14,763 bases of DNA, from assembly GCA_041736305.1 (NCBI GenBank), contig JBGSTX010000350.1, forward strand, positions 1 to 14,763, given 5' to 3'. Position 1 is the stretch's first letter. Every line of letters begins with the position of its first letter. This document shows, one piece after another, positions 1,842 through 14,763 of this stretch. The notes beneath the pieces were generated by a model that searched no databases, was not told the origin of the DNA, and saw nothing but the letters and a program-made list of their open reading frames with translations. The position numbers and the translations under genes were made by a program. The stretch is from Oligoflexus sp. (lineage in GTDB: Bacteria > Bdellovibrionota_B > Oligoflexia > Oligoflexales > Oligoflexaceae).

Positions 1842-2890
1842 CAGACGTTTGGACGATTTCGTATCTAGTGCTTTTTTTGGCTTCATTATTTTACCAGCTG
1901 AGAAGGCAAGGCCTATCCCCAAGCGGCCTTTTTGATTTTTTGGCGTGCCTGCCCCTCGTCGCTTATCTGGTTCGGCCGGAACCCTTTCTCCCACTCCTAG
2001 CTTTTCAGATTCAGGCCCTTAGCCTTGTTGCTTACTGGAGCCGCAAAGCTCATCGAGATCAGGCTGAAAGTCTAAGCAAGTTCAGCTTCAGTATGATCAT
2101 GGGCAATTTTTTGCTTCTGAGTCACTGGATTCTCATGCAGCCAGCTGGAAGCCCCCTGCTTTGGCCTTTTGGAGCCCTCGCAGCCGAGGCGGGTATTTGG
2201 TATGAAGCTTTAGGGGCAGCGCTCGTCGGCGTCGCCCTACTCCTGCTGCTCGGTCTCCCGCCGCTTCAGCAAGGTTGGTTCGATTTATCAGAAACGCAAA
2301 GCTCTACTGAAATTGTGCGAAGCGACTTCCAGCTTCGACTAAGCTTGATCTACGGGCTGTGGGCTTATCTACCTTTTATCTTAGAAACCCTATCTCCTGC
2401 TCTCCTCGAGATTATTGCAACGACAGGAATAATAGCACTCTTTCTCGCGCGTTTGATCTCGAGCGTTCAAATGAGCGTTACACGAACTTTCGCCTACCAG
2501 GCCAGCGCTCTGAGTCTGAGTTTTTGGGTCGTTTTGGGAATGCCTAGCGAACTAGCCGAAAGTCTGCAGCTTCAGGCAATCGGTTTTAGCGCCATCCTCT
2601 TCCTTGGCTGGGGCTTTTCCTTGGTTTCCTTTCAGCGTCGCTCATCAGCAATGAAGCCATCCGTTGTCCATCCCCATTGGGATGATGCGGGTCTTTCGCC
2701 ACATACCTTCCGCAGCTTAAGGCTCATGCAAATAGTCGATCTATCGCAAGCTTTGCTGGCTTTAGCTTTAGCTTGGTTCGCGGCTCGCTACGCAATCTTT
2801 TTTGCAGTGCTAATCTATCTTATAGCCTGTGCCGGCCTTTTTCTTGACCAGGCGGCCTTTCGAGCTCGAAAAAGCCTTTCGAACGAATAA
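1838..2890 (+). CDS. Divergent NuoN/ND2-like (proton-antiporter family) membrane protein
   Basis: Colinear NuoN-like blocks: FQIQALSL~LELxSLxL, QAESLSKF~SxEAxxKY, LLLGLPPLQQGWFDLSE~FKxxxxPFHxWxPDVYE, QLR~xxK and SVQMSVTRTFAYQAS~LxQTNIKRxLAYSS, with conserved spacing. It is shorter (350 aa) than canonical NuoN. Confidence 0.7.
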   Translation: MTDVWTISYLVLFLASLFYQLRRQGLSPSGLFDFLACLPLVAYLVRPEPFLPLLAFQIQALSLVAYWSRKAHRDQAESLSKFSFSMIMGNFLLLSHWILMQPAGSPLLWPFGALAAEAGIWYEALGAALVGVALLLLLGLPPLQQGWFDLSETQSSTEIVRSDFQLRLSLIYGLWAYLPFILETLSPALLEIIATTGIIALFLARLISSVQMSVTRTFAYQASALSLSFWVVLGMPSELAESLQLQAIGFSAILFLGWGFSLVSFQRRSSAMKPSVVHPHWDDAGLSPHTFRSLRLMQIVDLSQALLALALAWFAARYAIFFAVLIYLIACAGLFLDQAAFRARKSLSNE

Positions 2891-2906
2891 AATTTAGAGG
2901 TTTTCC

Positions 2907-3689
2907 ATGTATCCGATCCTGTTTCGCGTGGGAGATTTCATTTTACCGAGCTGGCATGTTTTCTATGTGCTTGCAGGACTGGTGGCTTGGTATCTGCTCC
3001 AAAAGCTGCGGCCTATCTTGTTCCCAGAACTCGAAAGTCCAACTCTGGATACCATTTTTATAGTGAGCTACTTCTTAGGCTACATCGGTGCCCGCTTGTT
3101 TTCCTTGCTTCATGAAGGCGAGTACCTGAGAGCTGATTTTTCCTGGTGGCAGGCGCCTTTTCAATTGGGGAGTATGACCCTCTATGGAGGGGTGATTGCC
3201 GTCAGCGCCTTTGTGGTGATATATGCAAAATTCAAAAAAATGGACCTTCTAGGATTATCAGACCTCTTTATAATTCCAAGTTTGATCGCTATTGGCATCG
3301 GACGGATAGGCTGTTTTCTTAACGGCGATGACTTCGGAGCAGTGGCGAGTCCAGGAGTTCCTTGGCCTTTAGCCATGCCAATTCCCAGCTTAGGGGACGA
3401 TCTATTTCGATATTCAGTACAGATTTGGGAAACTGTCTTCTGCTGGGCCCTGAGCGCCTTTCTCTATACGCGAGTTCGAGAGAAAGTCTACCCTCGTGGT
3501 CGCATCTCGGACATAGGCATCATTTCTTATGCAGCGGGGCGCTTTGTTCTGGAGTTCTTCAGGGGCGATGATCGGGGTACTCTATTCTCGACTTTGCTTT
3601 CGCCGGCCCAATTTTTAGGAATTATTTTTGTTTGCCTGTGGCTTGTTTTTCGCATGGTATCGCAGCGGGTGGTATCGAATCGAGCTTGA
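2907..3689 (+). CDS. lgt: Prolipoprotein diacylglyceryl transferase family protein (atypical)
   Basis: MYPILF N-terminus, IGARL, MTLYGG, IGRIGCFLNGDDFG, QIWE and RFVLEFFRGD. RBS GAGG upstream; 16 nt after the NuoN-like stop. Confidence 0.9.
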   Translation: MYPILFRVGDFILPSWHVFYVLAGLVAWYLLQKLRPILFPELESPTLDTIFIVSYFLGYIGARLFSLLHEGEYLRADFSWWQAPFQLGSMTLYGGVIAVSAFVVIYAKFKKMDLLGLSDLFIIPSLIAIGIGRIGCFLNGDDFGAVASPGVPWPLAMPIPSLGDDLFRYSVQIWETVFCWALSAFLYTRVREKVYPRGRISDIGIISYAAGRFVLEFFRGDDRGTLFSTLLSPAQFLGIIFVCLWLVFRMVSQRVVSNRA

Positions 3690-13302: not shown

Positions 13303-14297
13303 GGCCTTCTTTTGGGGCCTTAATCGGACTTTGGATCAGTTTTGGCATTTCGACTCCTCTATTGGCCGCTGAACAACTCATCGACCGCTTACTTGCAGAA
13401 GTGAATGGTGAGGCCATTACCTATAGCCAGGTCCAGACTAAAGTAAGCAAGGGCCCGCTTATAGAAGTGTCCCCTTACCCTGCCCTCGAAAGTGATCCGC
13501 AGGAACGGATAGCACTCCAGGACCTCATAAATAAGACTATGATCATGCAAAAGGCAGACGAGCTCGATCTCGAGGTTTCCGACTCGGAACTTCAGGAGGA
13601 AATTAATAAATTTCTTCAGCGTCGCCAGATGACTAAAGAAGCGCTTATGGAAGCTCTCGCTCAGCAAGGGATGAGTTACGAGCAATACAAAGAGGATTTT
13701 CGCACGCAGTCGATTATTCAGATGTTTCAAGGTCGGGAACTCTTGCCTCAGCTAAAGGTCACCGATCGTGACGTGCAGCTCTATTATCTGCGTAATTCGG
13801 GAAGTCTTGGCGAAAACATCAAGCTCTCGCTCAAGCAACTTGATGTCTCCATCCCTAGCGATGCAGTTCCTGCTGTAAAAGAAGGTAAAAAGCAGCTCAT
13901 TGAAAAAGTCTATCAGGAGCTCGAGGGTGGGATGCCTTTTGATCAGGCTGTGAAGATCTATTCTGACAACGAGAGTGCGCGTGAAAACGGCGGCGCAATG
14001 CCGCAGATCTTTCTGAAGGATCTCGCGCCTATGTTTCAAAACAGTATCAAAGATCTTGAAGAGGGTCGTTACACACGACCTATAGAAACCCCGGGCGGGT
14101 ACTTCATTTTTTATGTCGAGAAGCGGGAATTTGCGGGTAACGACGATTATCAAAAGAAAAAGCCCCAGTTGGAAGCGGCCCTGAAACAGGAAGAAATGGG
14201 CAAGCTGCTGCAGAAATGGATAGAGAGCCAGCGTCGTCGCTCGAACATAAAGATTAAGGACGACGCTGTGGGCAAGGAAAAAGCAGCGGCTAGTTAA
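13248..14297 (+). CDS. surA: SurA-like periplasmic chaperone / PPIase
   Basis: Signal peptide ending PLLA, then IDRLLAEVNGEAIT (SurA N-terminal signature) and one parvulin domain (YSD...NGG...L.P.F...PIETPGG). It overlaps the upstream gene by 55 nt; GAGGA precedes the ATG. Confidence 0.85.
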   Translation: MGRNGSEQYTDQVISNILRPSFGALIGLWISFGISTPLLAAEQLIDRLLAEVNGEAITYSQVQTKVSKGPLIEVSPYPALESDPQERIALQDLINKTMIMQKADELDLEVSDSELQEEINKFLQRRQMTKEALMEALAQQGMSYEQYKEDFRTQSIIQMFQGRELLPQLKVTDRDVQLYYLRNSGSLGENIKLSLKQLDVSIPSDAVPAVKEGKKQLIEKVYQELEGGMPFDQAVKIYSDNESARENGGAMPQIFLKDLAPMFQNSIKDLEEGRYTRPIETPGGYFIFYVEKREFAGNDDYQKKKPQLEAALKQEEMGKLLQKWIESQRRRSNIKIKDDAVGKEKAAAS

Positions 14298-14587
14298 GGA
14301 AGCCTGCTGTTGCGGTTTCTGATAATTATTGCCGCTAAGATGAGACTAAAGGCCAACAGTCTAATCAGGTAGACCCAGCTGTTTGCTTCGGTGAGGTCGC
14401 TGCGGGATCGAGTGGCCGAATCGTGGACTACGAAAAGTACGACCCTTTCGATTGAAAGGCAGGCTAAAGCCGCAGAAAACATCAAAAAAAAACGGTCTTT
14501 CGAAGCTATCCAAAACTTCAAAAAGAAAATCGCGGATGCAGCAAAAGTGGCCATGCTGATCCCCGACAGAAAATCAGCCGCATTCAT
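14294..14587 (-). CDS. Small 3-TM membrane protein, DUF5985-like
   Basis: FLSG...IFFLKFW..SKDRFF..F...ER...VYLIRLLAF.LI..AII..N matches my recollection of the DUF5985 pattern. ATG at 14587 with GGAG 8 nt upstream. Confidence 0.8.
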   Translation of the reverse strand: MNAADFLSGISMATFAASAIFFLKFWIASKDRFFLMFSAALACLSIERVVLFVVHDSATRSRSDLTEANSWVYLIRLLAFSLILAAIIIRNRNSRLP

Positions 14588-14763
14588 CAAGCTCTCTCCA
14601 ATTGAAACCTCGTCCTTTAGGGCGAGGAGGAATTTGGAGGGATCAATCTCCCAGGTCGGAGATAATCCCCAAAGGGTGCCGGTCTTTCCCGGCTGTCAGT
14701 CTCGTGAGAGACATCTGAGTTACCTCAGCGTACTCCGCTTGCGCGGGTAAAGGTCTCCTCGCC
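14588..14763 (-). mobile_element. 3' portion of a probable non-autonomous IscB-type IS200/IS605 (HEARO/omega-RNA) element, truncated by the window edge
   Basis: The minus strand reads GGCGAGGAGACCTTTACCCGCGCAAGCGGAG...GAGGTAACTC (resembles the HEARO/omega-RNA 3' region). Later it reads TTCCTCCTCGCCCTAAAGGACGAGGTTTC...TTG|ATGA (IS200/IS605-type imperfect terminal hairpin followed by ATGA). No iscB ORF lies in between. Confidence 0.7.
14715..14763 (-). ncRNA. 3' end of HEARO/omega-RNA-like structured RNA (continues beyond window)
   Basis: Two GNRA-capped hairpins on the minus strand, CCGC-GCAA-GCGG (14746-14735) and CTGAG-GTAA-CTCAG (14728-14715), preceded by GGCGAGGAGACCTTTACC. Confidence 0.62.

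Follow-up and report, generated by a model that had tools for sequence, protein, structure and literature searches.

A putative left end of an IS200/IS605-family element beside a DUF5985 gene at the edge of an Oligoflexus contig

Insertion sequences (IS) of the IS200/IS605 family are mobilised as single-stranded DNA by the Y1 HUH transposase TnpA. In IS608, as described in excerpts of PMC3201880, the target motif or cleavage site lies 19 nucleotides (nt) 5' of the foot of the left hairpin, the motif itself being outside the IS; the right end is cleaved 10 nt 3' of the right hairpin, and guide bases lie just 5' of each hairpin foot. According to Meers et al. (PMC10055086), TnpB and IscB both take their guide-RNA scaffolds from the right end (RE), with the guide outside, and the IscB RNA precedes iscB. 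Non-coding DNA flanked by IS200/IS605 hairpins is also known, as palindrome-associated transposable elements (PATEs) and as ISGst elements that consist of omega-RNA only, and excerpts of PMC4615843 and PMC10055086 report PATE transcripts. Here we analyse the end of a 14,763-nt stretch of Oligoflexus sp. DNA (contig JBGSTX010000350.1), which as a whole is called the window. The feature under study comprises the 173 nt upstream of a DUF5985 gene up to the window edge and occupies the last 176 nt of the window. We read positions 14588 to 14763, with a probability of roughly 0.65, as the left end (LE) and LE-proximal interior of an IS200/IS605-family element at the contig edge. As it stands, this is a routine annotation of a transposon end of a kind already known. 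A sequence-only reading of the same DNA had proposed an element of the IscB/HEARO type without an open reading frame (ORF).

The closest described counterparts are LEs of the IS200/IS605 family (IS608 type, and the IS605-like elements of the Arsenophonus apicola plasmid NZ_CP123757.1 and the Methylovirgula plasmid pHY1), whose hairpins are near-identical to the one in the window. Like the window, these LEs have a target motif 16 to 20 nt 5' of the hairpin foot, guide-like bases, a two-tier stem with 6-nt internal loops, no visible duplication on insertion, and an adjoining host start codon (that of ccoS in Methylovirgula). They differ from it in that tnpA ends within about 35 nt of the hairpin, whereas the window has at least 136 nt of structured non-coding DNA there and no visible transposase. 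The putative LE and its flank consist of the following parts.

14294 to 14590, minus strand: intact DUF5985 gene for a small membrane protein of 98 amino acids (aa), the flanking host gene (Pfam PF19447, 61 bits).
14583 to 14587, plus strand: TTCAT, inferred target motif or transposon-adjacent motif (TAM) flanking the LE; its reverse complement, ATGAA, comprises the DUF5985 start codon and the next two bases.
14588 to 14607, plus strand: 20-nt LE spacer, with the 5' half of an outer stem (14593 to 14601) and a guide-like GAAA (14604 to 14607) abutting the hairpin foot, assigned from folds and from comparison with Methylovirgula and IS608.
14608 to 14627, plus strand: sub-terminal imperfect palindrome CCTCGTCC-TTTA-GGGCGAGG, inferred top-strand TnpA-binding hairpin, assigned from BLAST matches to IS200/IS605 ends and a consensus match.
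14628 to 14642, plus strand: 6-nt internal loop AGGAAT and the 3' half of the outer stem (14634 to 14642) of the two-tier LE structure, assigned from folds.

The sequence-only reading had seen the palindrome on the minus strand, as CCTCGCCC-TAAA-GGACGAGG at 14627 to 14608 inside TTCCTC...GTTTC, and had ascribed it to a Y1 transposase; the palindrome is present as described, and the ascription is borne out by homology to known element ends. Against the consensus of IS200/IS605 end hairpins, all 20 positions fit on the plus strand (0 mismatches, compared with 3 on the minus strand), and the chance expectation for a match at up to 3 mismatches was 0.01 in 200 shuffles of the window. BLAST searches of the region against plasmids and phages showed that a stretch of 26 to 44 nt recurs in many records; a 67-nt query matched 571 plasmid records, 425 of them from Klebsiella. 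Where the surroundings were annotated, the matches fell at the extreme end of IS200/IS605 elements: beside tnpA in Methylovirgula pHY1 (L064; Y1_Tnp, 128 bits), after IS605 orfB in the IS200-605 element of the Sulfolobus virus SMV1 (L065), after a Pfam-confirmed TnpB in phage phiKX1 (L072), at both ends of repeated tnpA-tnpB elements in the Arsenophonus plasmid (L078 and L079), and after a tnpB remnant in Klebsiella (L080). Orphan copies of the hairpin were found on Streptomyces, Moellerella, Microvirga, and Allochromatium plasmids. Matching end hairpins thus span bacteria, archaea, and phages, and homology identifies the palindrome at 14608 to 14627 as a genuine sub-terminal hairpin of the IS200/IS605 (Y1 TnpA) family. 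No second copy of it, and no repeat of at least 14 nt involving the region, was found in the window. The SMV1 element, for its part, carries extra copies of the end hairpin (L065, 2430 to 2449 and 4357 to 4376), one of them 56 nt outside the right end in the same orientation and another past the annotated left boundary and inverted, so that clusters and inverted pairs of end hairpins occur naturally.

The palindrome also accounts for the best of the sub-threshold Rfam matches (E of ≤10), all of which were on the plus strand and confined to it: HgcC (RF00062; 19 to 20 bits, gathering score 50), sot0042 (RF02656; 11 bits, gathering score 88), and RAGATH-10 (21 bits). According to excerpts of PMC4615843, HgcC and sot0042 are archaeal RNAs, overlapping the tnpB 3' end, that contain the "RE-like tetraloop" of IS200/IS605 ends, and both models matched the tnpB 3' end and right end of the SMV1 element (E values of 5e-10 and 2e-5). 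These TnpB omega-RNAs (sotRNAs) have a conserved 8-bp hairpin and an AGGA after it in common with the plus strand of the window. However, in the window the match is to the hairpin only and scores below gathering, there is no TCAA-type boundary at +10, the gene upstream is DUF5985 instead of tnpB, and the geometry is that of an LE.

Several observations bear on which end, and which strand, the hairpin represents. Wherever the body of a reference element was known, the strand with the TTTA loop was the top strand, in the sense of tnpB (6/6 REs and 5/5 LEs); the loop reads TTTA on the plus strand of the window, which is therefore its top strand. TTCAT, documented as a TAM of this family next to the LE of ISGst5 (PMC10055086), is separated from the hairpin foot by 20 nt, with GAAA adjoining the foot on its 5' side. 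The corresponding spacing is 16 nt in all four Arsenophonus LE copies, each with (T/A)TTAT, then CAAATCCGCCGTAAAA, then the hairpin, and 18 nt in the Methylovirgula LE, where TCAT stands in front and GAAA again lies just 5' of the hairpin. The RE copies of the Arsenophonus elements (4/4) consist of the hairpin followed by AGGATGTCAA, with diverging flanks beyond, and among eight independent RE-type loci, seven have TCAA, TCAG, or TTAA at +7 to +10 (L070 is the exception). In the window, the RE tail AGGATGTCAA at +10 is absent and AGGAATTTGG follows the hairpin in its place, so that it does not look like an RE. If it were an RE, moreover, the element body would fall on the intact DUF5985 gene, whose start is only 17 to 20 nt away.

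Predicted folds agree with this orientation. The hairpin is predicted to be nested in an outer 9-bp stem (14593 to 14601 with 14634 to 14642) with symmetrical 6-nt internal loops, and the same two-tier fold was predicted for the Methylovirgula LE (centroid structure) and the Arsenophonus LE (minimum free energy structure); the Arsenophonus RE was not predicted to adopt it. Folding of the hairpin region favours the plus strand (z of -3.58) over the minus strand (z of -1.93), as expected of a top-strand element. Cumulative GC skew climbs across the window; given the preference of the family for the lagging-strand template stated in excerpts of PMC5027513, this is weakly consistent with the plus strand being that template. 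From the TTCAT spacing, the guide-like GAAA, the two-tier stem, and the missing RE tail, we infer that the hairpin is a left end. An LE can thus be told from an RE by target motif, spacing, and two-tier stem, all legible in the DNA itself, and this call decides whether a guide RNA is to be expected at a given end.

The putative insertion site was assessed by comparison with related genomes. The DUF5985 homologues examined were 52 to 60% identical to the window protein, and its nearest relatives (up to 61% identity) were encoded in metagenome-assembled genomes of Oligoflexales and Bdellovibrio. In all 15 Bdellovibrionota-type loci (relatives at 44 to 61% protein identity), an ORF of 85 to 104 aa ends at or overlaps the start of the DUF5985 gene. 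Family features were common to the nine abutting ORFs that were translated, both of those tested proved to be DUF5985 themselves, and the junction read ...TCATGA... in the seven close loci inspected; the relatives therefore carry a tandem DUF5985 pair. An initial set of 19 related sequences contained no sufficiently conserved stretch, and an alignment of six sequences was used in its place. No such paralogous gene was found within the 173 nt upstream of the DUF5985 gene in the window. The simplest reading of these comparisons would be an insertion exactly between two DUF5985 genes, and a transposon end at this position would explain both the contig break and the split of the conserved pair. 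The ancestral DUF5985 start is probably the ATG at 14587; if so, the TTG at 14590 would be derived from the element.

On this reading, the element would have inserted 3' of TTCAT, which is the reverse complement of ATGAA; it would hence sit immediately before the DUF5985 ATG on the other strand and part the gene from the paralogue that abuts it in related genomes. By analogy with the family, the substrate of TnpA would be the two-tier hairpin (14593 to 14642) on the lagging-strand template, and the bases adjoining the hairpin foot on its 5' side would direct cleavage to the position after TTCAT. Read on the minus strand, the LE spacer holds a Shine-Dalgarno-like GGAGAGAG and a TTG just ahead of the DUF5985 ATG, so the Shine-Dalgarno-like sequence of this gene may now be supplied by the LE. 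The interior, which folds best as minus-strand RNA, would be read out across the LE and on into DUF5985. The element may be a full IS or an ORF-less, PATE-like derivative of about 200 nt; its RE and its cargo, be this tnpA, tnpB, iscB, or nothing, would lie past the window edge.

An LE abuts a host ATG both in the window (14588 to 14607, minus strand; DUF5985) and in Methylovirgula pHY1 (L064, 2528 to 2545; ccoS), and each of the two LEs supplies a Shine-Dalgarno-like GGAG or GAGG 7 to 9 nt upstream of that ATG. Such an insertion may leave the downstream gene translatable, since the element places a Shine-Dalgarno-like sequence of its own before the host start codon, in Methylovirgula as in the window.

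The remaining DNA, from 14628 to the window edge at 14763, contains the following features of the putative element interior.

About 14638 to 14749 (segment 14630 to 14752), minus strand: five consecutive hairpins, folding best on this strand, internal to the element.
14731 to 14749, minus strand: hairpin 1 by fold, GCAA loop.
14715 to 14728, minus strand: hairpin 2 by fold, GUAA loop.
14699 to 14712, minus strand: hairpin 3 by fold, UCAC loop.
14678 to 14693, minus strand: hairpin 4 by fold, GAAAGA loop.
14638 to 14670, minus strand: hairpin 5 by fold, GACCUG loop.
14676 to 14698, minus strand: TGACAGCCGGGAAAGACCGGCAC, a 23-nt hairpin motif (TGACA-GCCGG-GAAAGA-CCGGC-AC) that recurs unchanged between genes in many phages and some plasmids.
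14755 to 14763, minus strand: GGCGAGGAG, from sequence and fold a perfect inverted copy of 14621 to 14629 (the 3' arm of the terminal hairpin plus AG).

Seen from the window edge, the minus strand begins with GGCGAGGAGACCTTTACC (14763 to 14746) and continues with the GCAA and GUAA hairpins, as the sequence-only reading had described. The interior minus strand has a predicted folding energy of -52.0 kcal/mol (z of -5.20), a stability reached by none of 200 shuffles; the plus strand has a z of -2.24, with 5 of 200 shuffles as stable. For the whole 179 nt, the minus strand reached -78.9 kcal/mol (z of -5.46, 0/200 shuffles as stable) and the plus strand a z of -3.43. Two roles are conceivable for the 9-mer GGCGAGGAG: it could form the 5' strand of a 9-bp closing helix, or it could supply the first arm of a second end hairpin that the window edge truncates; in the latter case, the last 9 nt may mark a small ORF-less element. 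No coding signal was detectable in 14628 to 14763, where the only open frame is one of 39 aa (14762 to 14646, minus strand). This frame was considered as the tail of a TnpA, TnpB, or IscB protein and rejected, as it gave no BLASTP alignment to the Methylovirgula TnpA and no Pfam match at an E of ≤10. Its one match among 1.84 billion representative proteins, to a repetitive eukaryotic-type zinc-finger protein of 1362 aa via seven repeats, was judged spurious. ARAGORN found 0 tRNA or tmRNA genes, no Rfam family reached its gathering score anywhere in the window, and the other Rfam matches listed at an E of ≤10 were snoRNA, miRNA, and CRISPR-DR noise. No promoter-like site was found in 14000 to 14763, and the sole terminator-like site lies elsewhere, at 14176 to 14162.

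Some of these data weigh against an IS200/IS605 left end. The window stops 136 nt past the hairpin and contains no transposase, tnpB, iscB, or second end. Both reference LEs have a gene ending within about 35 nt of the hairpin, in place of the non-coding DNA of at least 136 nt seen here, and the comparison draws on two independent reference LE families only. The fold of the internal array is better on the bottom strand, which a plain LE model does not predict. The 22 nt ahead of the ATG bear a faint and nonsignificant resemblance to the 3' end of the absent neighbour gene (GFNWREL versus GLIWELT); were the resemblance real, the stretch taken by the model as LE spacer would be host DNA. A relic of the neighbouring gene in these 22 to 24 nt was rejected as a candidate, given that 227 of 2000 shuffles reached its mean score and that it ranked 51st among 2106 window tiles.

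The alternative that the sequence-only reading had put forward is an ORF-less, IscB-type (HEARO/omega) guide-RNA element of about 200 nt on the minus strand. To fit the data, it would have to begin an RE hairpin at 14755 to 14763 and run as a bottom-strand RNA from this RE through a scaffold of about 130 nt (14749 to 14638) to the LE, with the guide beyond the window. IscB scaffolds do run from RE to LE on the bottom strand, here the minus strand, which folds better (z of -5.20) and has two GNRA loops, and the last 9 nt repeat a hairpin arm. HEARO (RF02033) belongs to the same transposon superfamily and ORF-less copies are known; excerpts of PMC10055086 document TTCAT as the TAM next to the LE of ISGst5, an IscB element, and describe omega-RNA-only and PATE-like elements. 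One minus-strand frame reads KFLLALKDEVS, so the peptide FLLALKDEVS, once likened to IscB tails, does exist; it is of the type expected from reading through such hairpins, the Methylovirgula tnpA frame likewise reading ...PPRPKGRGF through its own. The absence of a protein-coding gene in the 136 nt past the hairpin also stands, but the IscB/HEARO assignment does not. RF02033 gave no match on either strand at the gathering score or at an E of ≤10, and it was not among the seven and eight matches listed at that E value in searches of 564 nt and 184 nt, respectively. This lowers the odds of an omega-RNA without full exclusion, because the model detects only 65% of IscB 5' untranslated regions according to excerpts of PMC9755519 and the RNA may be truncated at the window edge. 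The visible end has the geometry of an LE, whereas HEARO scaffolds derive from the RE ahead of iscB; the window contains no iscB, tnpA, or tnpB, and the next gene is DUF5985. A minus-strand omega-RNA would contain the hairpin in non-consensus polarity, with a UAAA loop and a C.A mismatch. In addition, the flank of the edge 9-mer (GTCT|CCTCGCC on the plus strand) is unlike the GAAT or GAAA guide positions 5' of reference hairpins, the second hairpin is not within the window, and IscB elements are much rarer than TnpB elements (as stated in excerpts of PMC10055086). The assignment as an IscB/HEARO guide RNA is not supported, and we consider the element it describes very unlikely. A broader version, in which the five-hairpin segment is a transposon-borne non-coding RNA of a kind outside Rfam, lying between two end hairpins of an ORF-less element of about 200 nt and read into the neighbouring gene, strikes us as unlikely; it might be a divergent IscB-type scaffold usable in trans or a regulatory module around the TGACA-GCCGG-GAAAGA-CCGGC hairpin.

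The very stable multi-branch fold (z of -5.46) could belong to the host, as a riboswitch-like, cis-regulatory 5' leader of DUF5985 that contains an exapted or relic IS hairpin. Its strands for the closing helix and for the IS hairpin are mutually exclusive, and the Shine-Dalgarno sequence lies within the outer stem, so on and off states can be drawn, one with the 9-bp closing helix (14755 to 14763 with 14621 to 14629) and one with a long hairpin that pairs UCCCUCC with GGAGAGAG. However, no Rfam family matched, the best E value in a BLASTN comparison of the leader with 63 loci was 0.17, with no hit upstream of DUF5985, and an intergenic leader is lacking in 15/15 close relatives, because the paralogous gene abuts the start codon. 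The hairpin, TTCAT, and two-tier fold are, moreover, those of a transposon end, and we regard a host leader as quite improbable. Another candidate is a second, inverted IS200/IS605 element of the TnpB type lying beyond the window, nested in or next to the owner of the 14608 to 14627 hairpin, whose RE would be the window edge (on the minus strand, ...GGCGAGG and then AGACCTTTAC) and whose flank, i.e., the guide region, would be the sequence from 14745 downwards. The 9-nt arm copy falls exactly at the contig edge, as is typical of an assembly break in a repeat, and the two bases past the arm (CT on the plus strand) agree better with reference hairpins read on the bottom strand than with the same hairpins read on the top strand. 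This argument involves only 9 to 11 nt, and the ten bases after the arm (AGACCTTTAC) match AGGATGTCAA at few positions; a second element is in our view highly improbable. We give the least credence to an assembly artefact, in which a chimeric or collapsed contig end would have fused the DUF5985 gene with unrelated repeats. The feature does lie in the last 176 nt of the window and combines a phage-like 23-mer with a transposon hairpin, both prone to repetition, but the junction coincides exactly with TTCAT, and the distance from there to the LE hairpin is correct, a combination that is a signature of insertion chemistry and not of a random mis-join.

The 23-nt hairpin motif means that the interior of the putative element has an exactly conserved sequence in common with many unrelated phages. 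It was found in 32 phage records, from phages of Enterobacteria, Pseudomonas, Stenotrophomonas, Xanthomonas, Acinetobacter, Aeromonas, and cyanobacteria, as well as in several plasmids and in 5 of 5426 Escherichia coli genomes. It is intergenic, varies by hardly a letter, and always runs in the same direction as the flanking genes. Of the 13 loci examined (L066, L067, L073 to L077, and L082 to L087), 6 have a tRNA gene on the same strand within 400 nt 3' of the motif, at a distance of 2 nt in L076 and 11 nt in L086. In L067, a second copy (position 1956) shows a compensatory change in the stem (GCCCG...CGGGC). A literature search for the motif string gave no match; neither an overlapping Rfam family nor a common larger fold was found in seven loci, and none of 11 neighbouring ORFs had an informative Pfam domain. 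The function of this phage hairpin appears to be undescribed. The stretch of about 35 nt directly upstream of the motif (...GTTAGGCCGATGAGTTCAA.TGGCAATAAAGAAC) is nearly identical in E. coli phage mEp390 (L066, 2463 to 2502) and Xanthomonas phage DIBBI (L086, 1163 to 1202), so the conserved unit is longer than 23 nt in some phages. In the immunity region of Stenotrophomonas phage BUCT708 (L067, 2216 to 2335), a sub-threshold RprA-like match with a terminator was observed (50 bits, short of the gathering score of 70; E value of 7e-4).

The rest of the window is a stretch of housekeeping chromosome of Bdellovibrionota/Oligoflexia-like character, with gpsA, lgt, a zinc alcohol dehydrogenase gene, a pyruvate carboxylase gene, mfd, and genes for two SurA-like peptidyl-prolyl isomerases. 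In the Bdellovibrionota-type loci, DUF5985 forms part of a conserved three-gene unit (at about 2300 to 3300 in each of L001 to L011, L014, L019, L046, and L053), which encodes a protein of about 130 aa without a convincing Pfam match and, after it, two paralogous DUF5985 membrane proteins. The reading frames of the two paralogues overlap (ATGA). In some loci (L008), a gene for a Na+/H+ exchanger with TrkA-C domains lies ahead of this unit.

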